Below are positions 29,518 through 62,234 of a stretch of DNA of 64,000 nucleotides, piece after piece (within the stretch, counting starts at the first letter, position 1; each line of letters starts with the position of its first letter). The notes under the pieces are model-generated. The model was not told the DNA's origin, made no database searches, and saw only the letters and a list, made by a program, of their open reading frames with translations. Both the position numbers and the translations under genes were made by a program. This DNA comes from an uncultured Thermodesulfobacteriota bacterium (GTDB lineage Bacteria; Desulfobacterota; CAZCTP01): assembly GCA_964501575.1 (NCBI GenBank), contig CAZCTP010000003.1, forward strand, positions 10,384-74,383. The letters are read 5' to 3'.

Positions 29518-29533
29518 TGGCATGATAATTGCA
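29518..29533 (+). promoter_or_regulatory. Sigma-54 (-24/-12) promoter candidate TGGCAT-N5-TTGCA
   Basis: TGGCATgataaTTGCA: GG at 29519-29520 and GC at 29531-29532 with canonical 10-nt spacing. Located 200 bp downstream of a sigma-54 activator gene and about 17 nt upstream of the MoaD-like start. Confidence 0.5.
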
Positions 29534-29549: not shown

Positions 29550-29849
29550 ATGAAAATTAAGGTGAAGTTTTATGGAACAGTTAGAGATATAGTGAAGGAA
29601 AAAGAAGTTGAAATAGAGGGTAATGGAATATTAAACATTATGGACATTATAAATATTTTTATAGAGAGATATGGAAACAGGTTTAAAGAGAGAATTTTAA
29701 CTAATAATGGGAAGCTTCAGAGTTATGTAAGAATATTTATAAATGATGATCCTGTAGATTATAGAGAATTGGATAAGAAACTTATTAACAAAGGAGACTC
29801 AGAGATATTAATATATATATTACCAGCTCAAATGGGAGGATTATTATGA
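29550..29849 (+). CDS. MoaD/ThiS-family beta-grasp small protein with GG followed by two extra residues
   Basis: MKIKVKFYGTVRDIVKEKEVEIEG... aligns with the MoaD N-terminus (MIKVLFFAQVRE...); ends ...AQMGGLL. Stop overlaps the next gene start (ATGA). The upstream ATG at 29529 used by the ORF track would place the promoter inside the gene. Confidence 0.55.
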   Translation: MKIKVKFYGTVRDIVKEKEVEIEGNGILNIMDIINIFIERYGNRFKERILTNNGKLQSYVRIFINDDPVDYRELDKKLINKGDSEILIYILPAQMGGLL

Positions 29850-33962: not shown

Positions 33963-33973
33963 GGAGGGTAATT

Positions 33974-35710: not shown

Positions 35711-35736
35711 AAATTTAATATAAAAGGAGGTGTAAG

Positions 35737-38208: not shown

Positions 38209-38318
38209 AAAGAGCGGAAGTCCTGAAGTGCTGAGGAACGGAAGTGCGGAAGCAAAGACTTTAGATTTCTGAGTTTTCGTGCTTCTGTTCTCTTATAAAG
38301 TATAAAGGAGATAAAAAT

Positions 38319-39245
38319 ATGGTTGATAATGGAGAGAGAGCTCTTATATTTAATATTCAGAGATATTCTGTCCATGATGGTCCTGGAATAAGAACTACAG
38401 TATTTATGAAGGGATGCCCATTAAGATGTATATGGTGTCAGAATCCAGAAGGTATAAAGGGAAGGGTAGAGATAGGTTATAGCAAAAGATTGTGTTGTAG
38501 AGACTATCTCTGTTTAAAGGCGTGTCCAAATGGAGCAATAACTCTCTTAAAAAACGGAGAGATAAGGATAAATAGGAATATATGTTATCTATGTGAAAAT
38601 AGAAATTGTTTGTCAGTATGTAATACAAGAGCTATAGAACCGATAGGGAGATACATGACAGTTGATGAATTATTAAAAGAGGTTATGAAAGACAGCCTCT
38701 TTTATAGAAATTCGGATGACGGTGGAGTTACCCTATCCGGTGGTGAATCAACAACACAATGGAGATTTGTATTGGAGTTTTTTAAGAAATGTAAAGAGAG
38801 GGGGGTCCATACTGTTCTTGATACATGTGGATATGTTAAATGGGAAAGACTGTTAAATATATTGGAATATACGGATATAATTCTTTACGATATAAAGCAT
38901 ATGAATAGTAAGGAACATAAAAGACTTACCGGGGTTTCAAATGAACTTATTTTAAAGAATGCAGAGAATATTGCTAAGTTAAAGGATAAAAAGGTTATTA
39001 TAAGATATCCTGTTATCCCCGGGTATAATGATTCTATAGAAAACATAGATGCTTTAGGAGAATTTATGAATAAAATAGGTTTAAAGGAGATATGCCTTTT
39101 ACCCTATCACAGATTGGGCTCAGGTAAATATGAGAAAATAGGAAGGAAATATAGATTAGACCATGTTTTGGCTCCAAGTGAATCACAATTAAAGGGAATA
39201 AAGGATATTTTTGATAGAAGAGGGTTTATCTGTTCTATACAATGA
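38319..39245 (+). CDS. Glycyl radical enzyme activating enzyme (radical SAM, with two-ferredoxin insert)
   Basis: 308 aa; CX3CX2C in GCPLRCIWCQN, then two ferredoxin-like Cys motifs (CCRDYLCLKACP, CYLCENRNCLSVCN) as in BssD/CutD/GD-AE-type activases. Confidence 0.9.
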   Translation: MVDNGERALIFNIQRYSVHDGPGIRTTVFMKGCPLRCIWCQNPEGIKGRVEIGYSKRLCCRDYLCLKACPNGAITLLKNGEIRINRNICYLCENRNCLSVCNTRAIEPIGRYMTVDELLKEVMKDSLFYRNSDDGGVTLSGGESTTQWRFVLEFFKKCKERGVHTVLDTCGYVKWERLLNILEYTDIILYDIKHMNSKEHKRLTGVSNELILKNAENIAKLKDKKVIIRYPVIPGYNDSIENIDALGEFMNKIGLKEICLLPYHRLGSGKYEKIGRKYRLDHVLAPSESQLKGIKDIFDRRGFICSIQ

Positions 39246-39802
39246 ATCTTAAAAGGATTTTAAAACTTGATCCGGATAGAATAAGTTTAGGGACAAATAT
39301 AGCCCTTATAGGAGCAATAAGATTTGCAGTGAAAAATAAAAGTAGTGAAGTATACCCTGAACATATTATATATTCCCTTTTTACCATGGAGGATGCTGTT
39401 CTGCCTTTACTGATATCCAATCTTGGAGGCGATCCAGAAGAGGTTATTAGTAGTATAGAAAAGAGAATTAAAGATATTCAGGATAAAAAAAGAGTAGCTG
39501 ATAGAATTGAGAATGTTAAATTGTCTTTCAAATTAAGAAGGATAATAAATGAGGCTCTTAAGGAATCAGAGATGAGAGGAGAGCTTTTGTGTAATGATCA
39601 TCTTATGGTCGCTCTTTTTAAAGAAAAGGGTGGATTATTTTCGGAGATCCTTTTAAGTAATGGTATTAAGGAGTTTGATGTAAAACCCTTCAATTGTGGA
39701 GGATGTCCCAACGTATGTGAAGATATTATTGAATATATTGTAAACGGTGAGGTAATTGGAAGATATGGTGGGATATGTGGAACATGGAGGTTTAACCTAT
39801 GA
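39242..39802 (+). CDS. Stand-alone Clp N-terminal-domain (double Clp_N repeat) protein with Cys-rich C-terminal tail
   Basis: 186 aa; two Clp_N repeats (PEHIIYSLFTMEDAVLPLLISNLGGDPEEV and NDHLMVALFKEKGGLFSEILLSNGIKEF); tail C-x2-C-x3-C...C. ATGA overlap with the AE gene. Confidence 0.55.
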   Translation: MNLKRILKLDPDRISLGTNIALIGAIRFAVKNKSSEVYPEHIIYSLFTMEDAVLPLLISNLGGDPEEVISSIEKRIKDIQDKKRVADRIENVKLSFKLRRIINEALKESEMRGELLCNDHLMVALFKEKGGLFSEILLSNGIKEFDVKPFNCGGCPNVCEDIIEYIVNGEVIGRYGGICGTWRFNL

Positions 39803-39887
39803 AGAACATAGGCGGGAAGAGTGGAAGCGCGGAAGGACTTTGTAATTGGAAGAAATAGAGAATATGTGGAACATGGAGGTTTAACCT
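39773..39887 (+). repeat. Perfect 26-bp direct repeat (39773-39798 and 39862-39887) bracketing a 63-bp GGAAG-rich segment
   Basis: ATATGTGGAACATGGAGGTTTAACCT occurs twice; copy 1 is the 3' end of the Clp_N gene, copy 2 supplies the RBS of the next small ORF. The bracketed segment resembles the GGAAG-rich element at 38209-38265. Confidence 0.8.
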
Positions 39888-39888
39888 G

Positions 39889-40457
39889 ATGCGAAATATA
39901 ACAATTTTGAAGGAATCTGTAATTATAATGTTATCCATTCTATTTTTTGGATTTACCCCTATTAACAGGAACTATCTTGGAATAGATATTGGCATATCCC
40001 CTGATGAGTTTGTTAAGAGAACAAATGGAAAGGAGGTGACATACAATCTTTTTCATGTAAAGGATGAGAGAACAATCTTTTTCATGTAAAGGATGAGAGA
40101 ATATTCGAAGCTGTGGATTATAAGAAGGGTGTAAATATCCATTCATATTTTTATAAGGGGGTCCTATATAGATTTGATGTGGAATATCCTGCTGACTGTT
40201 TACCCTGTGAATCATTATGGAATAATGAGATCAGAACTTTCTTTAAAGCTTATAATGCCCCAATGATTAATAATGAGGCTATTTCCGTATGGAATGACGG
40301 CAAGACAGAACTTATATTGTTTAAGAAGAGTAAAGTAATAATATTAAGAGATGATAGGGTAGCAGATATAATAGAAATGGAGGAAAATAAAAACCCTCTT
40401 ATCAAGAATATGGAAGAAAAGGCAAGAAATATATTTAAAGATAAAAATAAAGAATAG
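39889..40457 (+). pseudogene. Small membrane-anchored protein gene split by a 29-bp tandem duplication (frameshift)
   Basis: ORFs 39889..40089 and 40113..40457 become one continuous about 180-aa frame if one copy of the 29-bp unit is removed (...LFHVKDER|IFEAVDYKKGVNIH...). Confidence 0.5.
40044..40101 (+). repeat. 29-bp perfect tandem duplication (CAATCTTTTTCATGTAAAGGATGAGAGAA x2)
   Basis: Units at 40044-40072 and 40073-40101 are identical; the duplication introduces a TAA at 40087-40089 in the second copy. Confidence 0.85.
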
Positions 40458-40532
40458 AATGAGAGAATATTTTTACTCTAATGATTTTAAAATTAATTTT
40501 TAATCTAATAATTTTGATTAAGGAGGTGCTTT

Positions 40533-42035
40533 ATGAGATTAATAAAATATAGTGTTATAATTTTAATGATATTTTTATGGGTTAATCCTTCCTATAGTGG
40601 AACAACTTTTACTACAAAAGCAGGGATACTATCTATTGGTGGTTATTTTGAAAATGCGAGTGGTTTAAGGCTTGGGCAGGAGGGTAGAGGCAGATTAACA
40701 ATGTGTAGAACCTCAATTCAGCCTGATATATTCTTTGATACCGGAAAGGGCGTAAGATTCTTTTTAGCTCAAAGACTGGTTAAGGAGACTAAATATACTC
40801 TTGAGGATAAATTGAGAAAGAAAGCAGGATTGCCACCCCTTGAGAGCGATTTTTATGATGAATATGATTCATGGTCTGTAAGAGAGTTATATTTTGATAT
40901 TGATCTTTTGGAAAATTTAAATATAAGGATTGGAAGACAATTGATAACATGGGGTGAGACAGATGTATTTACCCTTTTAGATGTTATTGACCCTCAAGAT
41001 TCAAGCTGGAATCTACCAGGTCTATTCCCTCTTGAAGAAACAAGGCTTCCGTTATCAGGTTTAAGGGCTCTATGGACAATGCCATCAATGGGAATGACGA
41101 CAAACCCTGTATTTGAGTTTGTTTACTTCCCCGGCCTTGATGATTTCAGAGTTAACAAGGGTGCTCCCACAGCAGGAAGATTTCGTCCCCATCCTGAGGA
41201 CAGACCAGGAGCAGCGTTTCCATTTCAGTTTCCTCAGATCCCGCTAAGTGATTGGAGAAGCATTGGAAGGAATGTTGGTGTAAGAACAGTCCTTCCTGAA
41301 AAGCATGGTGATAATGGAAGGGTTGGAGGCAGATTGTATTTCTTTATTGGTAGATGGAATTTCTCTATTGCAGACTATTATACATATAACCTATCTCCTA
41401 ACTTCTATATTGAAAATATAGAAAGGGATGATTTGGGAATTGCAAGGGCTGCCCAGTTTGCTGTTAAATATAAGAGGCAGAATATAGTCGGATTTACCTT
41501 CAATGTTTCTGATGACTATACAAAGGCAACATATAATGGTGAGTTCGCATATTATATAAATAAGCCTTATAATACATATGATCCAAATATTAAAAATGCA
41601 GTTGTTCAGAAGGATACCCTATCCTCTGTGATAAGGATTGAAAGACCAACCTATATTCCACTTCTTCAGCCATATGATCCTACAAGAGAATTTGTTATCT
41701 CATTTCAGTGGTTTCAGGATCTTATTTTGAGTAAGGATGATAATCTCCATTTTCTTATATATAAGACTCCCATTGATAAAGTTACAACAAGGTTGACCCT
41801 TTCTATAGCCACAGGGTATAAGAACGACCAATGGAAACCATCTGTATTCTGGGCGTATGATCCTGATAGGAACAACGGACTGTTTAGAGGGATATTGGAA
41901 TATAATCCCCCCTGGAATGAAAGATATAAGTTGCAGATCCTTTACGAAAACTTCTGGGGTAAGGATTCCTATAACTTCGCTGGTTTCTTCAGAGAAAAGG
42001 ATTCTATATTCTTTAAAATACGGTATCAATTTTAG
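40533..42035 (+). CDS. Secreted/outer-membrane protein, DUF1302-like (putative beta-barrel of hydrophobic-substrate uptake cluster)
   Basis: 500 aa; cleavable signal peptide (MRLIKYSVIILMIFLWVNPSYSG); C-terminal aromatic residue (…KIRYQF); gene order OMP-BNR-RND-DUF1329 matches the known DUF1302/DUF1329 cluster architecture. Family assignment is by context and pattern. Confidence 0.45.
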   Translation: MRLIKYSVIILMIFLWVNPSYSGTTFTTKAGILSIGGYFENASGLRLGQEGRGRLTMCRTSIQPDIFFDTGKGVRFFLAQRLVKETKYTLEDKLRKKAGLPPLESDFYDEYDSWSVRELYFDIDLLENLNIRIGRQLITWGETDVFTLLDVIDPQDSSWNLPGLFPLEETRLPLSGLRALWTMPSMGMTTNPVFEFVYFPGLDDFRVNKGAPTAGRFRPHPEDRPGAAFPFQFPQIPLSDWRSIGRNVGVRTVLPEKHGDNGRVGGRLYFFIGRWNFSIADYYTYNLSPNFYIENIERDDLGIARAAQFAVKYKRQNIVGFTFNVSDDYTKATYNGEFAYYINKPYNTYDPNIKNAVVQKDTLSSVIRIERPTYIPLLQPYDPTREFVISFQWFQDLILSKDDNLHFLIYKTPIDKVTTRLTLSIATGYKNDQWKPSVFWAYDPDRNNGLFRGILEYNPPWNERYKLQILYENFWGKDSYNFAGFFREKDSIFFKIRYQF

Positions 42036-42050
42036 TAAGAAGGATAGAAA

Positions 42051-43067
42051 ATGGAATTTAAGAGAGTATCTATTCTATTAATGATGGTTCTCCTTCTCTT
42101 AATGAATTTCAGGATAGTCCGTGCCTCTGATAGAATTGTAAGATATTATGACAATCTGTATGATGTTGAAATAGTGGGAAAGAATATATGGGCTGTGGGT
42201 TATTATGGAACCATACTTTATTCAAAGGATGGTGGTGAAAACTGGACTATTCAGAAAAGTCCAACAAAGAATCCCTTATTCAGGGTAGAATTTCTCGATG
42301 GATCAAATGGATGGATTGTCGGAAATTATGGGACAATTTTGCATACCTCAGATGGTGGAAGAAGCTGGAATATTCAGAAGAGTGGAACAAATAACCATCT
42401 ATTTGGTATCTCTTTTATAAACCCGGTAAAAGGATGGGTTGTAGGAGAGATGGGAACCATTCTTCATACCGATGATGGTGGTAAGAGCTGGATTGACCAA
42501 TCATTAAAGAATGAAGATATCATTCTAAATAGTATATGCTTTATTGATGAGGAAAATGGATGGATAGGAGGGGAATTCGGGGTTATATATGCTACAAAAG
42601 ATGGAGGCAGGAGCTGGATTAAGCAGAATAGTCCGGTAGAGGTTGGAAGATTTTCAGGGATTAGCCAGGTTATAAATAAGATTTGCTTCAATGATTTAAA
42701 AAGAGGATGGGCTGTAGGTTTAGATGGTGTTATTCTCAAGACAGAGGATGGAGGTAATAGCTGGAGGATTGTTGATAAAAAGGGGATATCCAAGCATGAG
42801 ATGGCAAGGAGTTATCTTTTAGACCTTACAAGTAACAGTGAAGATATATGGGCTGTTGGTTTAAGGGGAGCAATAATCTTCAGCAAGAATGAAGGTAAAG
42901 AATGGCATGTTATGGACTTAGGATACAGATTCCATCTAAATGGTATAGATATGAATAAAAAAGGACTTGGAATTATAGTTGGAGATAAAGGGTTTATTCT
43001 TAGAACCTTAGACGGTGGGAAAAGCTGGGATGTTATAAAACTTGAGGGAAGAGGAGAGAGAAAATGA
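42051..43067 (+). CDS. BNR/Ycf48-like beta-propeller repeat protein, secreted
   Basis: 338 aa; signal peptide; six to seven repeats of the DGG(K/R)SW BNR/Asp-box motif. Confidence 0.65.
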   Translation: MEFKRVSILLMMVLLLLMNFRIVRASDRIVRYYDNLYDVEIVGKNIWAVGYYGTILYSKDGGENWTIQKSPTKNPLFRVEFLDGSNGWIVGNYGTILHTSDGGRSWNIQKSGTNNHLFGISFINPVKGWVVGEMGTILHTDDGGKSWIDQSLKNEDIILNSICFIDEENGWIGGEFGVIYATKDGGRSWIKQNSPVEVGRFSGISQVINKICFNDLKRGWAVGLDGVILKTEDGGNSWRIVDKKGISKHEMARSYLLDLTSNSEDIWAVGLRGAIIFSKNEGKEWHVMDLGYRFHLNGIDMNKKGLGIIVGDKGFILRTLDGGKSWDVIKLEGRGERK

Positions 43068-45370
43068 AAATATTAGCCACTTTTATTATAAAATATCGCT
43101 TGCCAATCCTGACTGTAATAGTTCTAATTACCCTATTCTTTGCTTATCAAATACTCCATATAGAGATGTATACGGTCTTTGAAGACCTTCTTCCTTCAAA
43201 TCATCCATATATAAAGATGCATAGAGAGTTTAAGGATATATTTGGAGGGGCAAACCTTGTTCTTATATCAATTGAGGTAAAAAAAGGGAATATATTTAAT
43301 TACGATATCCTCTATAAGGTTAAGAAGATGACAGAGGCTGTTGAGATGTGCCATGGGGTGAATAACTATTTAATATACTCCATTGCAAGGCAGAAGGTTA
43401 AGGATATGAAGGCAACATCATGGGGGATTGAGATACAGCCTGTAATGTTTCCGAATCCACCGAAAACCAAGGAAGGTATGGAAGAACTTAAGAATGTTAT
43501 ATACTCCAATGATACAATATTTGGTAAGCTTGTTTCCCTTGACAGCAAGGCTGCTTTAATAACAGCCTCATTTATGGAGAAGAGGCTCGACTATAAATAT
43601 ATATTTGACCATATAATGAGGGCAGCGGATTCACTAAAAGATGAGAATACAATAATTAATGTTGCTGGTGAACCCATATTATATGGATGGATGTATTATC
43701 ATCTAAGGGAAATATCTGTAATATTTATTATTACCATCTCTACTATAGTTCTTCTACTAATCCTTTACTTTAGAAATATACCTGGTGTTATTATACCCAT
43801 GCTTTCTCTTATAGTTACAGCTATATGGGGTGTAGGATTTAATGGCGTTATGGGGTATAACTTTGATCCATTAATCCTTGTAGTTCCATTCCTTATATCT
43901 GCAAGGACAGTCAGTCACTCTGTTCAGATGACTTCTCGATTCTTTGAAGAATATGTTAGATCGGGTGATAGAAAAGAATCAGCGAGGATATCCATTGAAG
44001 GTTTACTGATCCCTGGATTAACATCCATAATAACAGATGCATTTGGTATTCTTGTTATTATTATTGCTCCCATACCAATCCTGGTGAGATTGGGTGTTGT
44101 TGGAACATTCTGGATAATAACGAATATTGTGAGTGTTCTTATATTAGCTCCTATCATATTTACATATATTCCGGTTCCTAAAAAGATAAGAGAGGAAAAG
44201 AGTGAAGATCTCCTTGGGAGAACCCTGTATAGAGCTGGAAAGGGATGCTTTGGGTTTCCACGATTTGGTATAGTAGGAGCAGCTATAATCATTGTTATAT
44301 GGTCTTCATGGAATGTAAGATATCTGACAATAGGGGATTCTCGCCCCGGTTCCCCTTTATTATGGCCAGATGCTCCTTTTAATCTCAGCACAAAGCATAT
44401 AAATGATAAGTTTCCAGGAACAAACCAGTTGATAATATTTGTAAAAGGGAAACATGAAAATACAATAAAATCTCCTGCTTTATTGTACAAGATGGAGGAA
44501 TTTGAAAGGTATTTAAGGAGATATTCAAAGGTTGGTGGAACAGAGTCTATAATAAATCTTGGTAAGAGGGCATATATGGTATTTCATAACGATGATCCAA
44601 GATGGAGATTCCTGTGTAAATCCAGGAATGATATGGGCAATATCTTCTATTTAGCCCAGGAAGGAACAGAGCCTGGGGACTTAGATAAATGGGTAAATTA
44701 TAACTGGCAGCATGGAACTATTATAGCCTATTTAAAGGACCATAAGGGAGATACTATAAGGGAGATTATAGGTAGAGCAAAGAGATTCATTGATAAAAAT
44801 CCAGTTAAAGATGCAGAATGGAAGCTTGCTGGTGGTCTTATAGGTATAGTCGCTGCAGGGAACGAAGTTATTGCAAAAGCCCATGAGTGGAATCTATTCC
44901 TTATACTATTTATAACCTTCCTATGCTGTGCAATAGGCTATAGGTCTATTATTGGTGGTATACTATTTATAGTATCTACATCAATAGCCAATTTTACCAC
45001 CTTGGCTATAATGGCATATTATAACCTTGGTTTAAATGTTAATACAATCCCTGTTGTGACATTAGGTATAGGATTGGGGGTTGATTATGGTCTCTATGTT
45101 GTAAGCAGAATAAAGGAGGAATATGAAATATCTAAGGATTTGAAGATCGCTATTCCCCTGGCTATATCCACTGCTGGTAAGGCTGTTCTATTTACAGCAT
45201 TAACAATAACAGCAGGTATTATATTCTGGTGGTTTTCACCCCTTAGGTTCCAGGCTGAGATGGGGGGGCTTTTGACAATAGTACTTCTCTTTAATATGCT
45301 CGGGGGTATGTTTCTACTTCCGGCACTTATATATATTATAAAACCAAAATTTGTTATTGGAAGGGGGTGA
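43064..45370 (+). CDS. RND-superfamily exporter (MMPL/'predicted exporter of the RND superfamily' type)
   Basis: 768 aa; two 6-TM bundles each preceded by a large extracytoplasmic loop; sterol-sensing-domain-like TM region. Confidence 0.75.
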   Translation: MKILATFIIKYRLPILTVIVLITLFFAYQILHIEMYTVFEDLLPSNHPYIKMHREFKDIFGGANLVLISIEVKKGNIFNYDILYKVKKMTEAVEMCHGVNNYLIYSIARQKVKDMKATSWGIEIQPVMFPNPPKTKEGMEELKNVIYSNDTIFGKLVSLDSKAALITASFMEKRLDYKYIFDHIMRAADSLKDENTIINVAGEPILYGWMYYHLREISVIFIITISTIVLLLILYFRNIPGVIIPMLSLIVTAIWGVGFNGVMGYNFDPLILVVPFLISARTVSHSVQMTSRFFEEYVRSGDRKESARISIEGLLIPGLTSIITDAFGILVIIIAPIPILVRLGVVGTFWIITNIVSVLILAPIIFTYIPVPKKIREEKSEDLLGRTLYRAGKGCFGFPRFGIVGAAIIIVIWSSWNVRYLTIGDSRPGSPLLWPDAPFNLSTKHINDKFPGTNQLIIFVKGKHENTIKSPALLYKMEEFERYLRRYSKVGGTESIINLGKRAYMVFHNDDPRWRFLCKSRNDMGNIFYLAQEGTEPGDLDKWVNYNWQHGTIIAYLKDHKGDTIREIIGRAKRFIDKNPVKDAEWKLAGGLIGIVAAGNEVIAKAHEWNLFLILFITFLCCAIGYRSIIGGILFIVSTSIANFTTLAIMAYYNLGLNVNTIPVVTLGIGLGVDYGLYVVSRIKEEYEISKDLKIAIPLAISTAGKAVLFTALTITAGIIFWWFSPLRFQAEMGGLLTIVLLFNMLGGMFLLPALIYIIKPKFVIGRG

Positions 45371-45459
45371 GGGAAGTCAATTAAGAATTATGAATTAGGA
45401 ATTATGAATTATGAGTTATTATTAAGCAGGAAGTAAAAAATATAAAGAAGGAGGTTTAT

Positions 45460-46716
45460 ATGAAAAAATCAAAATATTTCGTTATTCCTTTTATAATTTT
45501 ATCCTTTATTTTTCTTCTTAATACGAGAAGGGGCTTTGCGGATGTTAAGCCAGGGGATGTTATAGGTCCAAATAACTGGGAGAAAGTTAAAGACCTATTT
45601 TTACCATGGATGTTAGGGCAGATAAAAAAAGGCTGGACAATAAAGATAAGAAAGACAGAGCCTATTCTCCCCACATTTTCAAAGGGATACTTAGAGGCAA
45701 CCCGGAAGTATGCAGGGCAGGCAAAGATAGGGCTCAATGATGGGTTGCTTAACTATAAAGGTGGCCTTCCATTTCCGAAGATAGACCCCGATGACCCTCA
45801 AGCTGGAATAAAGATTATGTATAACTTCTACTGGAGATGGACAGGAGATGATAAGGTTCTCGCTGTTGATAAAACCGGAAAGAGAATAGTACCCTGGAGG
45901 AGATGGGTTATTGATAGGCACGGAAATGAGATAACTGCAGATACATATGGATATTTTTTGAAAGCGAGTGCAAGAACAGATATACCTCCAATATCTGCTT
46001 TTAAAGGAAAGGAGCATATAGAGAGTTATAGTATGTGGATAAATGTATGGCCAAGGGATTCATCGGGAACGGTTGTCTTTTATTACAGATATTATGATCC
46101 TAAAAAATGGGATGACCAGTGGATATTTATACCGAGTATAAGAAGAGTAAGAAGATGGCCAACATCTCAGAGATGTTCAACAAAAGCTCCAACAGACTAT
46201 ATATGGGATGATAACTGGGGATGGGATTCAAAGGTAAGCCTTTTTAAATATAAACTTCTTGGTGAAAAGAAGATGTTAACCATATTTCATGGAAAGCATA
46301 TTCCATATAAGAAGAAGAAAGGTTCTCCATGGTTGCTGGATGAAGAGTTTGAAGTAAGGGACTGTTATGTTGTTGAGATAACTGCAAAGGATCCAAACTA
46401 CTGCTATAGAAGACAGGTATACTATGTAGACAAAGAGAGTTTTCATGGAGTTGCAAAGGAGGTGTATGACAGGAAAAATGAATACTGGAAAGAGATGTTA
46501 ATGTTTGGAACCAATTATGAATATCCTGATGGAAGGAAATTCTGGGGGATTTTAGGATCTATATTTGTAAATGTTCAGACAGAACATATAAATATAAACT
46601 GCCCTTCTGAATCTGGGGCTACAATATATTATAATATAGGACTTACTCCAAAGTTCTTTACCCTATCTCAGATGCAGCAATTTCAGAGAGGGATGGGTTA
46701 TGTGAAGATTAAGTGA
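45460..46716 (+). CDS. Secreted protein, DUF1329-like (partner of DUF1302-like protein)
   Basis: 418 aa; signal peptide MKKSKYFVIPFIILSFIFLLNTRRGFADV; paralog at 61160..62233. Confidence 0.45.
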   Translation: MKKSKYFVIPFIILSFIFLLNTRRGFADVKPGDVIGPNNWEKVKDLFLPWMLGQIKKGWTIKIRKTEPILPTFSKGYLEATRKYAGQAKIGLNDGLLNYKGGLPFPKIDPDDPQAGIKIMYNFYWRWTGDDKVLAVDKTGKRIVPWRRWVIDRHGNEITADTYGYFLKASARTDIPPISAFKGKEHIESYSMWINVWPRDSSGTVVFYYRYYDPKKWDDQWIFIPSIRRVRRWPTSQRCSTKAPTDYIWDDNWGWDSKVSLFKYKLLGEKKMLTIFHGKHIPYKKKKGSPWLLDEEFEVRDCYVVEITAKDPNYCYRRQVYYVDKESFHGVAKEVYDRKNEYWKEMLMFGTNYEYPDGRKFWGILGSIFVNVQTEHININCPSESGATIYYNIGLTPKFFTLSQMQQFQRGMGYVKIK

Positions 46717-46742
46717 GAGAAGGTTTAAAGTAGAGGATAAAG

Positions 46743-47525
46743 GTGAGGCTCAAGGATAGGGTAGCAATAGTAACAGGTGGCGGGACTGGTATTGGTAAAG
46801 CTATTGCTCTTGGCTTTGCAAGGGAGGGAGCAGATGTTGTAATTGCCCAGAGGAGGATGGAACTGGCAGAAAAAACAGCAGAGGAGATAAAAGTTATAGG
46901 CAGAAGAGCAATTGCTATTAAGACTGACATCTCTATAATTAGAGATGTCAATAACTTGGTTGATAGGACTATAGAGAATTTTGGTAAGATAGACATCCTC
47001 GTAAACAATGCATCTCTATTTCCTGGGGGTTCATTTTTAGAAATATCAGAAGAGGAACTGGATAGAGTGTTTTCAGTAAATCTTAAGGGGACATTTCTTT
47101 TAACCCAGAGAGTCGCTAAGGAGATGACCAGTAGAAGGAAGGGGAAGATAATAAATATATCTTCGGGCCGTTCCATTGTTGGGATACCCGGGCTTACCCA
47201 TTATACTGTTACAAAAGGAGGGATTAATGCATTTACGAGGGGACTGGCTGCAGAACTCGGTCCCTATGGAATAAATGTAAATGCTATTGTTTGTGGGTTT
47301 GTACCTGATACGGACGGGGTTAATGCTCTGTTTTCCTCTCTGGGTGAAGGGCTCTCCAGAAAGATCCTTGAAACTCAGATATTACAAACAGCCTTGAAAA
47401 GGTTCGGAAAGCCAGATGATTTTGTGGGTATTGCTGTCTATTTAGCAAGCGATGAAAGTAATTTTATAACGGCAGAGTGTATAACCGTGGATGGAGGCTT
47501 AGCTTATACTCGGATGAGATGGTAG
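46743..47525 (+). CDS. Short-chain dehydrogenase/reductase (FabG-like)
   Basis: 260 aa; TGGGTGIGKAIA Rossmann motif, NNAS, catalytic YTVTK (YxxxK). Confidence 0.85.
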   Translation: MRLKDRVAIVTGGGTGIGKAIALGFAREGADVVIAQRRMELAEKTAEEIKVIGRRAIAIKTDISIIRDVNNLVDRTIENFGKIDILVNNASLFPGGSFLEISEEELDRVFSVNLKGTFLLTQRVAKEMTSRRKGKIINISSGRSIVGIPGLTHYTVTKGGINAFTRGLAAELGPYGINVNAIVCGFVPDTDGVNALFSSLGEGLSRKILETQILQTALKRFGKPDDFVGIAVYLASDESNFITAECITVDGGLAYTRMRW

Positions 47526-47609
47526 ATATAAGGAATAAATGGAAGGGTTTTTTTGTTTGTAGGAAAGAGTATTAACTTAACTCTTAAACCTTTAATATAA
47601 GGAGGTAAA

Positions 47610-47998
47610 ATGGCAAGAGAAGCAGTAATAAAGGAAATAATAGCTCCAAGGGAGGTTCAGGGTGAGCCTTCAACTGAAAGATCAAGACTTGTAAGGGAGA
47701 GATATCTAAAGGCAGAGCTTGAAGTAGATCCTGAAAGGGCGGATCTCTATACAAAATCATGTAAGGAAACATAGGGAGAGCCTCTTGAAATAAGGAGAGG
47801 TAAGGCATTCAAATATATTATAGGTGGCATATACAGTTCAATGTAGTTGATACAAAGATGCTGAGGGATGCACAGAGGAATCCTGATAAATACAGGGGTC
47901 TTATTGTAAGGGTTGCAGGATTCAGTGCCTACTGGGTTGAGCTTTCTAAAGCAGTGCAGGATGAAGTTATAGCAAGAACTGAGTATGAGACATGCTAA
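47610..47998 (+). pseudogene. Glycyl radical enzyme remnant: GRE1-type N-terminus (about 70 aa) fused to C-terminal glycyl-radical motif segment, with an in-frame stop and about 700 codons deleted
   Basis: Begins with the same SD + ATGGCAAGAGAAGCAGTA as GRE1 (MAREAVIKEIIAPREVQGEPSTERSRLVRERYLKAE...), TAG at 47772-47774, then at about 47840 jumps to sequence about 90% identical to the last about 160 nt of GRE1 ([55 protein letters not shown]), out of frame. Confidence 0.75.
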
Positions 47999-48053
47999 AG
48001 AGGCAATAGGTAAGAGGTGATAGGTAAGAAATTATGAGATGAGGAAATAAAGA

Positions 48054-50345
48054 ATGAAAAGATACTCTGTGATTGGTAAAAGTTTGCCTATGGTGGATAG
48101 TATACCAAAGGTTACCGGGGAGGCTAAATATTCTATCGATATATTTTTACCAGGGATGCTACATGGGAAGATTCTAAGGAGTCCCTGTCCCCACGCAAGA
48201 ATTCTTAATATAGATGTCAGTGAGGCTAATAAACTTTCTGGGGTGAAGGCTATAATAACCGGTAGAGAAACCCTGGGAATAAAACGTAGCTTCTTTTCTA
48301 ACCCACCCCAGTATGATGATGAGTTTCCATTAGCTATAGATAGGGTCAGATATATTGGTGATCCATTGGCTGCAGTGGCTGCAGTAAATGAATATATAGC
48401 TGAAGAGGCATTAGAGCTTATTAAAGTAGAATATGAGGTATTACCTGCTTTCTTTTCTCCTGAGGAGGCTATGGAAGAGGGGGCTCCAATGATTCATGAG
48501 CATGTTAAGAATAATATAGCCCACCAACTCCATCTTGATTTTGGTGATATAGATAATGGTTTTAGTCAATCTGATTATATCCGTGAGGATAGATTCATTT
48601 CCAATCCCCTTCATCAGGGTTTTCTTGAACCTCATATCTCTGTAGCATCCTATGATTCTATGGGTGAATTGACTATCTGGACCTCTACTCAAATACCATT
48701 TTCCCTTAGAAGTGAATTATCTAAAACACTGGGAGTGAAAGAAGGGATGATAAGGGTAATTAAACCCTATGTGGGTGGGGCTCATTGTAGCAAATTAGAG
48801 TTACTTGCCCACCATTTCTGTTCGGCTCTCCTTTCAAAGAAGACAGGGAAGCCAGTAAAGATAGAGTTGACAAGGGAAGAAGTTTTTCAAATCAATAGAG
48901 GATCCCATCCTGTTACTATTGATCTAAAAACAGGGGTTAAGAAGGATGGAACTCTGATGGCTCAATATGCTAAGCTTATCGCTGATGCTGGAGCATATTT
49001 AAGCGCTGGATTGCTTCTAAATATCCTTTCAGGCCTTTTTATCTCCCTGCCTTATAAAATAGATAACTTTCGCTATGATGGATACATTGTATATACAAAT
49101 AACCCTGTCTGTGCAACTCAAAGAGCAATGGGATTGATTCAGATGCGCTTTGCAATTGATTCTCAACTGGATATAATTGCCAGGAACTTAGGAATAGACA
49201 TTAAAGATTTAATGATCAAGAATGCTGTTACCAGTGGGTATACTACTATAACTAAAAATAAGATATCAAGCTGTGGTCTTATAGAATGTATACAAAAAAC
49301 TGAAGAAAGTTCTTACTGGAGGGAAAGGCATAGTAAATTATTAAATAATAATAGAGGACTGGGAATAGGATGCGGATTCTGTACCTCAGGGGTAAAGGGG
49401 ACCAAGGTAACAGGGGATACCTGGGCTAAGTTAAAGATAGATTCAGATGGCATAGTTACTCTATTTACAGGGGCTTCAGATCTCGGCCAGGGAAGCAATA
49501 CTATTTTATCCCAGATAGTCGCTGAGGAACTGGGTATAGATTTAAAAAATATAAAAATAATCTCTGCAGACACAAAGATTACTCCAACAACTCCTGGAAG
49601 CTTTGGAAGCAGGGTTACCTTCCAGGTAGGAAATGCTGTAAAGCTGGCTGCTGCCGATGCAAAAAGGATTCTTCTAAGAACCGCTGCTAAAAAATTAAAG
49701 GTAAAATATGAATTCTTAGATATCAAAGATAATCGTATCTTTGTTAAGAATTTTCCAGATAGAGCCATATCTTTTTTAGATGCTGTTCGGGTATCTCTCG
49801 AATACCAACAGAGAAGAGATTCTATAATAGGCGAAGGATATTATACCCCTCCTGGTGAAATGCCGGATCCAGACACCTATGAGGGGAATATCGCTTCAGC
49901 CTTTAGCTTTGGGACAACAATAGCTGAAGTGGAGGCTGATCCTGAAACAGGAAGAGTTAATGTATTAAAAATAACTCATTCCCATGACTGCGGTTTTCCG
50001 ATAAATCCTATGGCAGTTGAAGGTCAGATTGAAGGTCAGGTAGCTTTTGGATTGGGACAGGCTTTATATGAAGAGCGTATTTTAGAAAATGGATTAATGG
50101 TCAATCCTTCTTTCTTGGGATATAAGATCCCTATAGCTTCAGAAATGCCGAGTGTAAATTCTATATTAATAGAAACCCATGATCCTAACGGGCCTTTTGG
50201 AGCTAAAGAATGCGGTGAGGGACCTCAAACTTCTGTAGTTCCAGCTATAGCCAATGCTATCTATAATGCAATCGGTATAAGGATTAAAGATTTACCCATA
50301 ACCCCTGAAAAGATATTGAAGGGATTGGAAGAAAAAAGCCTGTGA
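48054..50345 (+). CDS. Xanthine dehydrogenase/aldehyde oxidase-family molybdopterin-binding large subunit (CoxL/HcrA-like), no adjacent FeS or FAD subunit genes
   Basis: 763 aa; N-terminal a/b-hammerhead domain (SVIGKSLPMVDSIPKVTGEAKYSID...), MoCo-binding domains. Confidence 0.8.
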   Translation: MKRYSVIGKSLPMVDSIPKVTGEAKYSIDIFLPGMLHGKILRSPCPHARILNIDVSEANKLSGVKAIITGRETLGIKRSFFSNPPQYDDEFPLAIDRVRYIGDPLAAVAAVNEYIAEEALELIKVEYEVLPAFFSPEEAMEEGAPMIHEHVKNNIAHQLHLDFGDIDNGFSQSDYIREDRFISNPLHQGFLEPHISVASYDSMGELTIWTSTQIPFSLRSELSKTLGVKEGMIRVIKPYVGGAHCSKLELLAHHFCSALLSKKTGKPVKIELTREEVFQINRGSHPVTIDLKTGVKKDGTLMAQYAKLIADAGAYLSAGLLLNILSGLFISLPYKIDNFRYDGYIVYTNNPVCATQRAMGLIQMRFAIDSQLDIIARNLGIDIKDLMIKNAVTSGYTTITKNKISSCGLIECIQKTEESSYWRERHSKLLNNNRGLGIGCGFCTSGVKGTKVTGDTWAKLKIDSDGIVTLFTGASDLGQGSNTILSQIVAEELGIDLKNIKIISADTKITPTTPGSFGSRVTFQVGNAVKLAAADAKRILLRTAAKKLKVKYEFLDIKDNRIFVKNFPDRAISFLDAVRVSLEYQQRRDSIIGEGYYTPPGEMPDPDTYEGNIASAFSFGTTIAEVEADPETGRVNVLKITHSHDCGFPINPMAVEGQIEGQVAFGLGQALYEERILENGLMVNPSFLGYKIPIASEMPSVNSILIETHDPNGPFGAKECGEGPQTSVVPAIANAIYNAIGIRIKDLPITPEKILKGLEEKSL

Positions 50346-50375
50346 CCGGGTTGAAAATATAAAAGGGAGTTTAGA

Positions 50376-51842
50376 ATGGCAAGAGATATGTTTGATGAGG
50401 AGTATGATGTAGTTATAATCGGTGCAGGTATGGGAGGACTTACCTGTGGAGCAGCTCTTGCTAAAAAAGGAAAGAGAGTAAAGATATTTGAACAGCACAT
50501 TCTTCCAGGAGGATATGCCTCTTCCTTTGTTAGAAAGGGCTTTAAATTTGATGTCGCTATTCATTATGTAATCGGTTTGGGTAATGGGGGACAGGTATAT
50601 AAAATATTATCAGAAATTGGGCTTAGTGACGGATTAGATTCCATTAAATTTGATAATCTTTACAGATGCTTTTTCCCGGGAGAATCTTTTATTGTCCCCA
50701 GTAATTTGGAAGATTATTTAAATTTTCTCTCTCAAAGATTTCCAGAGGAAAAGATAGGAATAAAAACCCTTTTTGGTACAATGGGACTCATCTATGAAGA
50801 TAGTAAGAACCTTCCATCACTGACCTCTTTATTAACCCGATATAAAGATAAGACGCAAAAGGAATTATTAGATGAGTTTATAAAGGATGGTAAGCTTAAG
50901 AGTATAGTTTCTTCACTATTTTATGGGGGCTTGCCACCATCTAAGATATCAGCTATTCAGAGATCCTGCTCAATAATGGGAGCCTTTTCAAATGGGGCAT
51001 TTTATCCAGTAGGAGGTTCACAAGCATTAGTCAATATCTTGGTAAATGGATTAAAAAGAGCTGGAGGAGAATTAGAATTGGGTAGATTAGTGAATAGAAT
51101 TATTGTAAAGAATGGAAGGGCTATTGGAATTGAAACATCAGATGGTAAGAGAATAAAAGCTAATTGGATTGTATCTAATTCAGATATTATGGAAACCTTT
51201 TTTAAGTTAATCGGGGGAAAAGAGTTAGAAGGGATAAATCCTGCATTTCTAAAAGGCTTAAGGGAAATGCAGCCATCTTTATCCTCTTTTGATGTATACC
51301 TTGGAGTGGACTTGGATATAAAATCCATTGGTATCACTGACCATGAGATTATAGTGCATGAAAGCTGGAATATAGAGGAGGAATTTAAAGAATTATTAGA
51401 GGATGGTTTCTCGGGGGTTCCCTATTCTATAACAATACCAACACTTTCTGATCCTTCACTTGCTCCTGTGAATCATCATATAGTAATTATCTTTACACCA
51501 GCGCCTTATCATTTAAAAGGAGGGGATTGGAAGGCTGATAAAGAGAGGATTACGAATGAAATGATATTAAAGGCAGAGTCTGTTATACCTGGATTATCCA
51601 AGCATATAGTAGTAAAAGACTCCGCTACCCCTTTGACAAAGGAAAGGTATACATTAAATTTTAGGGGGTCTATTGGAGGTTGGGCTAATTATCCAAACAT
51701 AATATTTAATAAGCCATTACCCAAGACCCCGGTTGAGAATCTTTATCTTACCGGTCATTGGACACTTCCTGGAGGTGGAATTTCAGGGGTAATCTCTTCT
51801 GGATGGGCAGTTGCTAATATGATAGGGGAAAATAGCTTTTAG
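50376..51842 (+). CDS. FAD-dependent oxidoreductase, phytoene-desaturase (CrtI/COG1233) family
   Basis: 488 aa; N-terminal DVVIIGAGMGGLTCGAALAKKGKRVKIFEQHILPGGYA dinucleotide-binding motif characteristic of the CrtI-like amine-oxidase fold. Confidence 0.7.
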   Translation: MARDMFDEEYDVVIIGAGMGGLTCGAALAKKGKRVKIFEQHILPGGYASSFVRKGFKFDVAIHYVIGLGNGGQVYKILSEIGLSDGLDSIKFDNLYRCFFPGESFIVPSNLEDYLNFLSQRFPEEKIGIKTLFGTMGLIYEDSKNLPSLTSLLTRYKDKTQKELLDEFIKDGKLKSIVSSLFYGGLPPSKISAIQRSCSIMGAFSNGAFYPVGGSQALVNILVNGLKRAGGELELGRLVNRIIVKNGRAIGIETSDGKRIKANWIVSNSDIMETFFKLIGGKELEGINPAFLKGLREMQPSLSSFDVYLGVDLDIKSIGITDHEIIVHESWNIEEEFKELLEDGFSGVPYSITIPTLSDPSLAPVNHHIVIIFTPAPYHLKGGDWKADKERITNEMILKAESVIPGLSKHIVVKDSATPLTKERYTLNFRGSIGGWANYPNIIFNKPLPKTPVENLYLTGHWTLPGGGISGVISSGWAVANMIGENSF

Positions 51843-51883
51843 TTAATTTTTTAAAATATTATGAATTAATAAGGGGGTATAAA

Positions 51884-54385
51884 ATGGCAAGAGAATCAGC
51901 AATAAGGGAACTAATAACCGATAGGGAAATAAGGAGAGAGCCTACTACAGAGAGAACAAAGATGCTCAGAAAAAGATTTCTTCAGGAAAAGCTTACAGTA
52001 TGCACTGAGAGGGCATTTTTATTTACAGAGGCTTTTAAAAAAGGCGATGGTCTGCCAATAATGGTAAGAAGAGCAGAAGCATTCAAATATTACTTGAGCA
52101 ATATGAAGCCCATTATCAGAGATGGAGAGCTTATTGTAGGAAATTATACAAGATTTGTAAGGGGCGCTGCACTCTATCCTGATGGGGGTGTAAAGTGGAT
52201 AAAGGACGTATTAAAAGGGATTCTTTCTGAAGCCGAACAGAAATATGTAGAGCTCCCGGATGGGGGTGGAATTGTAAGGGACTTTGTCACATATAGGCTT
52301 GCACTGAGTAAGAAGGAAGAGGAAAAGTTATGGGAGGTGTTAGACTACTGGGATGGTAAAAGTTTTGATTGTATGATTAGAAAATATTTTGAAAAGACCG
52401 ATAGTTATGCCCTTCTAAAAGAATTAGAGTCTACATTAACTATTTCTCCATTTATTACAACCAATCTCTGTGAAGGTAGGATGGTTCTTGATTATGAAAA
52501 GGTTTTAAATAAGGGATTTAATGGAATAATAGAAGAGATAAATGAGAAACTAAGAGAGCTCAGAAGGATAGGGCATAGAGTGAGGCTTATGGATGATATG
52601 GATAAGATAATCTTCTACGAATCTGCTATATCATCCTGTGAAGGGGTAATAGCACTATCAGAGAATTATGCCTCCGAGGCAGAGAGATTGGCAAGAAACG
52701 AAAAGAATAGAAATAGAAAAGATGAACTAATGAGAATAGCAGGGGCATGCAGATGGGTTCCTGCAAATCCAGCGAGGAATTTATATGAGGCATTACAGTC
52801 ATGGTATTTCACTCATATGGCTGGATTCTTAGAGTCTGGTGGAGCAGCTTATTCTCCTGCAAGGTTTGATCAATATATGTATCCCTTCTATAAAAAGGAT
52901 ATAGAAGAGAATAAAATAACAAGGAGTGAGGCTTTAGAGCTATTAGAATGCTTAAGGTTAAAAATCGCTCAATATCAGTATGTAACCACTGTTATGAATG
53001 AAGGGCTTTTTTCAGGGACTACAAATCAGAATCTTGTGTTAGGGGGATGCACAAAGGATGGAAAACCTGCTGATAATGATTTGTCAACCCTCATATTAGA
53101 ATCAGCAATAACAATGCAGACAAATCAGCCAACTCTATCTATCAGATATAATGATAAACTTAATGAGGATTTCCTGCTTAAGGCTATAGAATTGGTAAAG
53201 ACAGGTATTGGGATGCCTGCATGGTTTAATGATGAGGTTGGCATTGCTCATGCATTATCCCATACCGGTGCTTCCTTAGAAGATGCAAGGGATTGGGCAC
53301 TGGGGGGTTGTGTTGAGCAGGTTGTATCCCATAGAAGGGGAGGATTCCAATTATCATTCTATACAAACCTCGGGAAGACACTGGAATTAGCACTGAATAA
53401 TGGAATTGATCCAGTAAGCAGGAAAAGGGTTGGTATTGAGACAGGTGATCCTCAGAATATGAGCTATGATGAGCTTGTTGATGCCTGGAAAAAACAGACA
53501 GCATATGTTTATCATCTTGCCCAGGACTACTGGAATATGGCAATGGGCTTGCACCCTCATATCCTTCCACTACCCTATGCATCTGTTTTAACAGATGATT
53601 GTATTGAAAGGGGTAAGAGTTTAGATGAAGGTGGAGCAAGGTACTCAGATGGACCAACCCATTTAATTACAGGTCTTATAGATGTAGCTAATTCCTTTGC
53701 AGCTATAAAGAAGTGTGTATTTGAAGATAAGGTCTTTACAATGGGGGAGTTAATTAATGCATTAAATAGAGACTTTAAAGGGTATGAGGATATTCAAAGG
53801 AAGCTTATTGATGCTTCAAAGTTTGGAAATGATGATGATTATGTGGATGATATAGCCCAAGATCTTTATGGATATCTTGCAGAGGAATCGCTCTCCCATA
53901 AGAATTGGTTTGGTCATCCAATCCCTCCTGCACCGGCTACTGTAACCACACATCCAATATTTGGTAAGGCATGTGGTGCTCTGCCAGAAGGAAGAAAGAA
54001 GGGGATTGCCCTATGTGATGGTTCTGTTTCGGCACTTCCCGGGACGGATAAAAATGGTCCAACAGCTCTTGTTAATTCTGCATCCAAGGTAGATGCTATT
54101 CCATATTCATGTCATCTATTAAATATTAAGTTTCATCCAACAGCTCTGAAGGATATAGATGGATCAAGAAAACTTTTGGCATTGATTAAGACCTATATGG
54201 ATAGGGGTGGATATCATGTTCAATTTAATGTGGTTGATACAAAGATGTTAAGGGATGCTCAGAGGAGACCGGAAGATTATCAGGATTTATGGGTAAGGGT
54301 AGCCGGATTCAGTATGAGGTGGGTTGAGCTATCAAGGGCTGTTCAGGATGAGATAATCAGAAGAACAGAGTATGAAGAATGCTAA
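51884..54385 (+). CDS. Glycyl radical enzyme GRE2 (PFL superfamily), paralog of GRE1
   Basis: 833 aa; C-terminal RVAGFSMRWVELS glycyl radical motif (Gly codon 54304-54306); catalytic loop LGGCVEQ (Cys codon 53309-53311). No activase or small subunit genes adjacent. Confidence 0.9.
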   Translation: MARESAIRELITDREIRREPTTERTKMLRKRFLQEKLTVCTERAFLFTEAFKKGDGLPIMVRRAEAFKYYLSNMKPIIRDGELIVGNYTRFVRGAALYPDGGVKWIKDVLKGILSEAEQKYVELPDGGGIVRDFVTYRLALSKKEEEKLWEVLDYWDGKSFDCMIRKYFEKTDSYALLKELESTLTISPFITTNLCEGRMVLDYEKVLNKGFNGIIEEINEKLRELRRIGHRVRLMDDMDKIIFYESAISSCEGVIALSENYASEAERLARNEKNRNRKDELMRIAGACRWVPANPARNLYEALQSWYFTHMAGFLESGGAAYSPARFDQYMYPFYKKDIEENKITRSEALELLECLRLKIAQYQYVTTVMNEGLFSGTTNQNLVLGGCTKDGKPADNDLSTLILESAITMQTNQPTLSIRYNDKLNEDFLLKAIELVKTGIGMPAWFNDEVGIAHALSHTGASLEDARDWALGGCVEQVVSHRRGGFQLSFYTNLGKTLELALNNGIDPVSRKRVGIETGDPQNMSYDELVDAWKKQTAYVYHLAQDYWNMAMGLHPHILPLPYASVLTDDCIERGKSLDEGGARYSDGPTHLITGLIDVANSFAAIKKCVFEDKVFTMGELINALNRDFKGYEDIQRKLIDASKFGNDDDYVDDIAQDLYGYLAEESLSHKNWFGHPIPPAPATVTTHPIFGKACGALPEGRKKGIALCDGSVSALPGTDKNGPTALVNSASKVDAIPYSCHLLNIKFHPTALKDIDGSRKLLALIKTYMDRGGYHVQFNVVDTKMLRDAQRRPEDYQDLWVRVAGFSMRWVELSRAVQDEIIRRTEYEEC

Positions 54386-56033: not shown

Positions 56034-57461
56034 ATGCCTTTCAATGATATAAGGGAGTTTATAGAAAGATTAAGAGAGACAGGAGATCTATTAGAGATTA
56101 ATAGAGAGGTCGACTGGAATCTTGAGGCAGGCGCTATAATGAGAAGGTGTAATGAAACAAATGAAAGGGCTCAACTTTTTAATAATATAAAGGGATATCC
56201 AGAAGGATACAGGTTATTTGGGAGTCCATTAGCAAATTTAAGAAGAGTCGCTATAGCACTCGAGATGTCTCCAGAATCCTCTTATACAGAAATATTAGAT
56301 GAGTATATTAAGAGGCGCAATAATATTATAAAGCCTATAATTGTGAGTGATGGTCCATGTAAGGAGAATATATATAAGGGAGAAGAGGTCGATCTGTTTA
56401 AATTTCCTTCTCCTATGATTCATGCAGGGGACGGAGGGCGTTATATAGGAACATTGGATGTAGGGGTATGTAAAGATCCGGACTCTGACTGGATAAATTG
56501 GGGTACATATAGGTTAATGATCCATGATAGAGATTCCATAGGTATATTTCTTATTCCTGCTCAACATGTTGGGATGATATATTCAAAGTATAAATCAAGC
56601 AATAAACCTATGGAATATGTTGCATTTATGGGCTGTGAACCAATAACAAATCTTGTTGCAACGACGGGGATACCCTATGGAGTGAGTGAAGTGGATGTAA
56701 TAGGAGCTGTTAGAAGAGAACCTTTAAAGGTGGTTAAATGTGAGACTGTTGACCTCTTTGTCCCTGCAAGCGCAGAGATTGTTATTGAAGGGGAGATACT
56801 TCCTCATGTCAGAAAGGATGAAGGACCATTTGGAGAAGGGGCTGGTTACCAGGTTACTGGAAGGGTTCCGAGACCAGTATTTAAAGTAAAAGCCATTACA
56901 CATCGAAATGCTCCAATACTTCCTGTTTCATGCATAGGTGTTCCTGTAGATGACAGTCATGTAGCAAGTAATATAGGATTTATATCAGGTATAAAGATAG
57001 CATTAGTTGAAGCTGGTATTCCAATTACTGGAATATATATGCCCCCAGAATCCGGGCTTTCCCTGTGTATTGTTTCAACAAAGACTCCGACTCCAAATAT
57101 AGCGAGAAGGATTGCAAGTTGTGTATGGGGAGATAAAAATGGCCAATATCTGCCCAAAATAGTAGTAGTTGATGAAGATATTGATCCAACAAATATGGCT
57201 CAGGTCATCCATGCATTTGCTACCAAGTGTCATCCATCAAGAGGGATAATGATTATGGATAATGTATTTAATTCTCCAATATTAGGATACTTAAGTAAGG
57301 AGGAGAGGACTTTAAGTAGTGGAAGCAATGTTTTGTTTGATTGTACATGGCCTAAAAGCTGGAAGACAGAAGATATTCCACCAAAATCCTCCTTTGACAA
57401 TATATACCCAGATGAGGTTAGAGAGATGGTTATATCTAATTGGAAGGAATATGGATTTTAG
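56034..57461 (+). CDS. UbiD-family (prenylated-FMN-dependent) decarboxylase/carboxylase
   Basis: 475 aa; MPFNDIREFIERLRETGDLLEINREVDWNLEAGAIMRR is the conserved UbiD N-terminus; no ubiX in window. Confidence 0.85.
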   Translation: MPFNDIREFIERLRETGDLLEINREVDWNLEAGAIMRRCNETNERAQLFNNIKGYPEGYRLFGSPLANLRRVAIALEMSPESSYTEILDEYIKRRNNIIKPIIVSDGPCKENIYKGEEVDLFKFPSPMIHAGDGGRYIGTLDVGVCKDPDSDWINWGTYRLMIHDRDSIGIFLIPAQHVGMIYSKYKSSNKPMEYVAFMGCEPITNLVATTGIPYGVSEVDVIGAVRREPLKVVKCETVDLFVPASAEIVIEGEILPHVRKDEGPFGEGAGYQVTGRVPRPVFKVKAITHRNAPILPVSCIGVPVDDSHVASNIGFISGIKIALVEAGIPITGIYMPPESGLSLCIVSTKTPTPNIARRIASCVWGDKNGQYLPKIVVVDEDIDPTNMAQVIHAFATKCHPSRGIMIMDNVFNSPILGYLSKEERTLSSGSNVLFDCTWPKSWKTEDIPPKSSFDNIYPDEVREMVISNWKEYGF

Positions 57462-58100: not shown

Positions 58101-59727
<1,627 letters not shown>

Positions 59728-59731
<4 letters not shown>

Positions 59732-61149: not shown

Positions 61150-61159
61150 GGAGGAGAGT

Positions 61160-62233: not shown

Positions 62234-62234
62234 T

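Follow-up and report, generated by a model that had tools for sequence, protein, structure and literature searches.

The short stretch of DNA between a short-chain dehydrogenase (SDR) gene (46743-47525) and a xanthine dehydrogenase (XDH)-family molybdopterin subunit gene (48054-50345) raises the question of whether a third glycyl radical enzyme (GRE) gene once stood there, in addition to the two intact paralogs GRE1 and GRE2, and of what is left of it. All positions refer to the window, that is, the whole stretch of 64,000 nucleotides that was analysed. The initial annotation had described here a decayed third GRE copy retaining both of its termini, and two colinear blastn matches to GRE1 bore out this description. 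From the analysis presented below, the locus 47591-47998 is very probably what remains, as a pseudogene devoid of function, of a third GRE gene.

Both ends of the gene, its lesions and its assembly

The comparison of the segment 47500-48060 with the window by blastn aligned positions 47591-47816 with GRE1 35714-35943 (77.8% identity over 230 nt) and positions 47825-48002, gap-free, with GRE1 38035-38212 (89.3% identity over 178 nt). The matches of GRE2 to the same N and C pieces were weaker than those of GRE1, with 69% and 74% identity. The two gaps of the N-piece alignment are confined to the RBS spacer or its vicinity, and the codons align colinearly, with no indels, throughout the coding part. 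The remnant lies on the plus strand and measures 0.4 kb overall, with both ends kept and the middle missing, and only 84 nt and 55 nt of non-coding sequence flank it. In blastn, homology to GRE1 ends about 20 nt 5' of the ATG and 4 nt past the stop, which fits a duplication old enough for the non-coding flanks to have diverged. The coordinates of the remnant and of its paralogs are given in Table 1.

Table 1 Features of the third GRE copy and of the intact GRE genes in the window.
Feature	Positions	Strand	Details
Translation-initiation region, AAGGAGG Shine-Dalgarno	47591..47609	+	Homologous to the GRE1 upstream region; blastn homology begins at 47591 = 35714
N-terminal remnant, codons 1-70 GRE1-like	47610..47819	+	Colinear, in frame; ~78% identity to GRE1, nt and aa
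Premature TAG, codon 55	47772..47774	+	GRE1 has GAA (Glu-55) there; ends the 54-aa ORF 47610-47774
Deletion junction zone	47812..47824	+	Bases assignable to either side, from a three-way comparison with the N side and C side of GRE1
C-terminal remnant, last 57 codons + TAA	47825..47998	+	89% nt and 95% aa identity to GRE1
Low-divergence tract vs GRE1, around the radical loop	47837..47941	+	4 of 105 nt mismatched; uninterrupted matches of 35 and 27 nt
Glycyl radical motif RVAGF	47909..47923	+	Gly codon 47918-47920; precomputed Pfam PF01228 match on the 46-aa ORF
GRE1, closest intact paralog, 823 aa	35737..38208	+	PFL-like + Gly_radical
GRE activase, next to GRE1	38319..39245	+	Sole activase in the window; TIGR02494 343.7 bits vs cutoff 174
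GRE2, more distant intact paralog, 833 aa	51884..54385	+	PFL-like + Gly_radical; 53% aa identity to GRE1

The RBS and start of the remnant had been noted to be the same as those of GRE1, and indeed the 18-nt start ATGGCAAGAGAAGCAGTA is found without mismatch at 35737 and 47610 and with two mismatches at 51884; in none of 100 shuffles of the sequence were three matches to it obtained. The aligned 5' regions of the remnant and GRE1 have in common TTTAATAT..AAGGAGG..ATG. Over its 210 nt, the N piece differs from GRE1 at 48 positions, and third codon positions account for 30 of these. The initial annotation had reported about 70 GRE1-like codons followed by a TAG; both are present, but the TAG interrupts this run of codons rather than following it. 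In this genome TAG is a regular stop, terminating 8 of the 44 large ORFs. A read-through of this codon, for instance as pyrrolysine, was considered and dropped, as TAG is a normal stop here and the deletion and the frame shift would stay.

The interior deletion, announced as about 2 kb, was confirmed: the GRE1-equivalent sequence absent from the remnant amounts to ~2.09 kb (GRE1 35947-38034). In tblastn only the residues 1-74 and 767-823 of GRE1 have a counterpart in the remnant, which is devoid of ~696 of the ~823 GRE1 codons (interior ~71-766), and no further GRE fragments were detected in the window. Counted from the ATG at 47610, the reading frame changes across the junction from 0 to +2, the frame of the C piece. 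With a nonsense codon, the loss of its interior and a change of frame, the gene is broken in three ways. On the far side of the junction, the match of about 90% to the C-terminal part of GRE1, with its RVAGF motif, is as had been stated, but homology resumes at 47825 and not near 47840. The translation of the C piece begins with WHIQFNVV and ends with TEYETC*, and 54 of its 57 residues are those of GRE1; the sole ATG-started ORF inside it is 47858-47998, of 46 aa. The GGTGG microhomology proposed for the junction could not be verified. This motif is located at 47820-47824, and GRE1 and GRE2 carry a similar GGGGTGGAT just before the C-side homology, but neither of them has GGTGG at the N-side breakpoint, and the demonstration of a microhomology would need the ancestral gene. 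The GC content is uniform across the region (~0.37-0.40), no Rfam family matched in the remnant region, and neither the promoter/terminator scan nor the sigma-54 pattern returned anything specific to the remnant.

We compared the remnant with what is expected of a functional GRE. It retains the C-terminal RVxG[FWY] motif, as RVAGF. It has no uninterrupted ORF of ~750-900 aa with a PFL-like barrel (PF02901), and the active-site Cys loop, which we take from established knowledge of the GRE fold to sit in the barrel interior, is absent together with the entire interior. There is no adjacent radical-SAM activase either, the downstream gene belonging to the xanthine dehydrogenase family. What is found is what defines a pseudogene, namely colinear homology to an intact gene of the parent type combined with disabling lesions, in DNA that the assembled contigs indicate to be real.

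This last point was examined against the assembly chimera that could be produced if the 5' end of one GRE were joined to the 3' end of another via a repeat that GRE1 also carries. The remnant (47837-47871) and GRE1 (38047-38081) do have an exact 35-nt repeat in common, and the Logan contigs break there. However, the junction 47812-47824 lies upstream of this repeat, whereas the join of a repeat-mediated chimera would fall inside it, and the 12 nt between the junction and the repeat already hold remnant-specific differences from GRE1. The Logan de Bruijn contig from SRR9849951, which corresponds to 38052-47866 of the window, is unbranched through the junction; the next Logan contig begins at 47842 and the graph breaks only inside the 35-nt repeat, 3' of which the sequence differs from GRE1 and runs on into the XDH gene. 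Four independent JGI metagenome assemblies (3300023444, 3300038381, 3300023548 and 3300023507) contain the 528 nt from 47526 to 48053 with 100% identity, and the 54-aa ORF recurs unchanged in them, in the Logan assembly of SRR9849951 and on an NCBI contig of 95 kb. The remnant is fixed in several independent samples. A search of the literature by sample accession gave no result. With assembled contigs as the basis, a chimera is effectively excluded, with next to no probability left to it, and the statement that the remnant is not an assembly artefact of GRE1 stands.

Substitution pattern and the tract around the radical loop

The dS and dN values of the remnant pieces relative to GRE1 were calculated by the method of Nei-Gojobori. 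The N piece (69 codons) gave a dS of 1.19 and a dN of 0.12, corresponding to an omega of 0.10, and the C piece (57 codons) a dS of 0.56 and a dN of 0.03, corresponding to an omega of 0.05; in the latter, third positions account for 15 of the 18 mismatches. When the amino acid differences to GRE2 were compared over the N and C pieces, 36+14 were counted for the remnant and 41+11 for GRE1. These totals do not place the remnant at a greater distance from GRE2 than GRE1, and thus no acceleration or excess of replacements is visible in its lineage. As the differences are mostly synonymous, we infer that the ancestor was a separate, long-functional paralog, which purifying selection would have maintained during almost its entire divergence from GRE1 and which was inactivated recently. 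The pairwise omega of 0.05-0.10 reflects this long functional phase, and all the sampled copies of the remnant are identical, with no polymorphism.

The remnant and GRE1 were sisters in 200 of 200 NJ bootstraps over the 127 shared codons. GRE1 is, by a wide margin, the best match of both pieces, with 77% and 95% identity, the next database protein showing 57% and 85%. The nucleotide alignment of the remnant with GRE1 and GRE2, which had been put forward as a check, agrees with a separate, formerly functional paralog that is sister to GRE1 and diverged from it mainly at synonymous sites. Among 5.8 billion proteins the closest full-length relatives of GRE1 are only 60-61% identical, and with no relative above 61%, the duplication appears to be specific to a poorly sampled lineage.

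The divergence of about 10% from GRE1 given in the initial annotation holds roughly for the C piece, but the N piece is ~22% diverged. The value for the C piece is itself a mosaic of a 96%-identical core, the low-divergence tract of Table 1, and a 78%-identical tail made up of its last 54 nt. Third positions differ from GRE1 in 3 of the 35 codons of the tract, as compared with 30 of 70 in the N piece and 10 of 18 in the last 18 codons (47942-47995), or 40 of 88 outside the tract. The limits of the tract were first set by eye; in a window-scan permutation over all the codons, the observed extreme was reached in 22 of 5000 trials (~0.004), a convincing value, although one obtained from only 127 codons. 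Between GRE1 and GRE2, 13 of the 35 third positions of the same tract differ, so that it is not intrinsically constrained at silent sites. Judged from these alignments, the tract probably results from a short ectopic gene conversion involving GRE1 and the third copy, which would account for a C piece ~90% identical to GRE1 and yet an N piece only 78% identical. The GRE paralogs of this lineage probably exchange short tracts.

Origin and function of the remnant

An intact third GRE copy was not found in any of the searched collections. A comparison with relatives that might retain it, as suggested in the initial annotation, was made through the neighbouring XDH gene in GTDB genomes and JGI metagenomes: flanks of 6-10 kb on each side, where the contig allowed, were fetched around XDH-homolog loci, and no GRE was present in the flanks of 160 loci, a search that is uninformative about close relatives as the best of these homologs is only 49% identical. 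The full-length GRE1 query, with no protein above 61% identity, returned no candidate for a third-copy orthologue. The N-terminal 71-aa protein query retrieved only the 54-aa ORF itself and had a poor sensitivity, GRE1 also being missed, and in a search of metagenomes for N-terminal-only loci, none of 600 pattern matches was confirmed. A query made of the fused N and C proteins returned only short C-terminal GRE fragments; the matches of seemingly high coverage, P0001 and P0002 among them, proved to be the usual C-terminal fragments and not N+C fusions.

The unequal divergence of the two pieces from GRE1 (22% versus 10% of nucleotides, dS 1.19 versus 0.56) could also be explained if they came from two ancestral genes, a larger deletion having begun close to the 5' end of a first GRE1-like gene and stopped close to the 3' end of a second one in tandem with it. 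Such a deletion would have taken the end of the first gene, any genes between, such as an activase, and most of the second gene, and the remnant is found with no accompanying activase. However, the tail of the C piece is as diverged from GRE1 (78%, 10/18) as the N piece is, a single gene with a local conversion tract needs fewer ancestral genes, and no fourth copy is seen in the window. An origin from two genes is therefore considered unlikely.

As to function, the C piece could in principle act as a mini "spare part" of the GrcA/YfiD type, providing a new glycyl radical domain to an oxygen-damaged GRE1. The 46-aa ORF is intact with its native stop and RVAGF motif, the C piece has 95% amino acid identity to the C-terminus of GRE1, the NCBIfam models GrcA, GrcA2 and GrcA3 detect the ORF, and short Gly_radical-only proteins (73-81 aa) occur elsewhere on long contigs. 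The scores, however, are 41.4 bits for GrcA3, 34.0 for GrcA2 and 27.0 for GrcA, against cutoffs of 158, 145 and 170, and the ORF matches best to models of full-size GREs, at their C-terminal ends. In the GrcA3 model, which has 78 positions, the ORF spans only 34-76, so that even the smallest known cofactor is represented with a third or more of its length absent, and even the longest stop-to-stop frame of the C piece covers only positions 22-76. Moreover, no Shine-Dalgarno precedes the ATG at 47858, where the upstream sequence is TTGATACAAAG and no GGAGG-like sequence was found within 15 nt 5' of the start, and there is no ATG, GTG or TTG in frame between the previous stop and 47858. A GrcA-type role of the C piece is thus extremely improbable. 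More broadly, it is very unlikely that the remnant has been kept as useful, be it as a conversion reservoir for the radical loop of GRE1 or as a minimal spare part of 46-57 aa; if true, the latter would be smaller than any known GrcA. The database proteins P0059, P0102 and P0115, of 73-81 aa with a Gly_radical domain only and encoded on contigs of up to 528 kb, are presumably cofactors of the GrcA2/GrcA3 type and gave a size benchmark for such a spare part.

The decay of a single third GRE gene remains the reading that we prefer, and the duplication of a paralog followed by an internal deletion, as proposed in the initial annotation, is supported as the best one. In this scheme, a lineage-specific duplicate of the GRE1 type would have lain between the SDR gene and the XDH-family gene and would have been held under purifying selection until its synonymous sites neared saturation relative to GRE1. 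A recent illegitimate, out-of-frame deletion would have taken ~2.09 kb, corresponding to most of the PFL-like barrel and hence to the catalytic core, and a GAG or GAA at codon 55 would have become TAG. At some point, ~100 nt around the glycyl radical loop would have been homogenised with GRE1 by ectopic gene conversion. This order of events, with conversion as the mechanism and loss of function as the outcome, is what we infer from the pattern of lesions and differences, and the ancestral sequence, the exact breakpoint and the single-deletion model are accessible only indirectly, no intact orthologue of the third copy having been found in the searched collections. At present, the remnant most likely has no enzymatic function and survives as 0.4 kb of transcribed spacer between same-strand genes. 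Its 57 C-terminal codons, lesion-free and with a native stop, are what is expected of a young pseudogene and also of a retained functional fragment. It is a genuine but ordinary bacterial pseudogene.

The surrounding cluster and related systems

The window is chromosomal, with glyQS, valS, ppdK and amino-acid biosynthesis genes, and the GREs are part of a long same-strand cluster of uncharacterised anaerobic catabolic genes (29518-63512). Among its members are the molybdoenzyme downstream of the remnant (48054-50345), which resembles the alpha subunit of 4-hydroxybenzoyl-CoA reductase (HcrA) below the cutoff, CrtI/amine-oxidase-like flavoproteins at 50376, 54476 and 58119, a UbiD-family decarboxylase (56034-57461) and a YCII protein. 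A gene for a sigma-54-dependent activator (PAS, AAA+, HTH_8) is located at 27353-29329, and a near-consensus candidate -24/-12 site, TGGCATGATAATTGCA, at 29518-29533, 5' of the molybdopterin oxidoreductase gene at 29846; this site may be the promoter for the cluster in its entirety. The cluster is bracketed by a pair of paralogous "variant" radical SAM genes (33959-35239 and 62217-63512; NF045502) with 72-79% nucleotide identity over several blocks, which points to an older segmental duplication. DUF1302 + DUF1329/LolA-like sets are present twice, at 40533-46716, with in addition BNR/Ycf48-like and MMPL genes, and at 59728-62233. Sets of the DUF1302/DUF1329 type are typical of Gram-negative outer-membrane uptake of hydrophobic substrates.

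Short repeats were also observed. The perfect 29-nt tandem duplication ACAATCTTTTTCATGTAAAGGATGAGAGA occurs in two copies at 40043-40100, and an exact 26-nt direct repeat at 39773-39798 and 39862-39887, 89 nt apart, with a related 27-mer at 58521-58547; the 29-nt and 26-nt repeats lie in a poorly coding stretch between a Clp_N-domain gene and a DUF1302 gene. A similar initiation region, AATA(T/A)AAGG(G/A)(A/G)G...ATGGCAAGAGA (MAR- start), is found for GRE1, the remnant and GRE2 (35717-35747, 47591-47620 and 51864-51894, respectively) and also at 50356-50386, before the unrelated CrtI-like gene at 50376; this shared region may be due to chance or to a common expression signal.

For annotation, the 54-aa ORF ("hypothetical protein") and the 46-aa ORF ("pyruvate-formate lyase" in JGI) should be merged into one GRE pseudogene, and neither should enter the tally of GREs or of GrcA-like proteins. 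The remnant indicates that this sparsely sampled lineage used to have a third GRE paralog beside the other two, all in a single catabolic cluster, and is now losing it; neither this nor the probable exchange of short tracts would surprise a specialist. The remnant is of value mainly for a correct annotation, and as a modest trace of how paralogs turn over and convert one another.

With regard to known systems, the best NCBIfam model for both GRE1 and GRE2 is NF033718 (indoleacetate decarboxylase), with 870 and 750 bits, respectively, under the equivalog cutoff of 1100; this model and NF033715 (4-hydroxyphenylacetate decarboxylase large subunit) are the nearest equivalogs. The remnant resembles the PFL2/arylacetate decarboxylase branch (TIGR01774) by the homology of both its ends and by RVAGF, but the missing ~696 codons, the stop and the frame shift make it a relic and not an enzyme. 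The cofactors GrcA (YfiD), GrcA2 and GrcA3 (TIGR04365, NF008341 and NF038360) are likewise short stand-alone homologues of the GRE C-terminal domain; however, they measure 78-127 aa, as compared with 46 aa for the ORF described here, which covers only the last ~43 model positions and has no RBS. The closest likeness is to paralog pseudogenes that arise by internal deletion, with colinear ends, a lost interior, a nonsense codon, a frame shift, intact neighbours and fixation. There is no essential difference from these, and the remnant adds only the probable conversion tract shared with a functional paralog.
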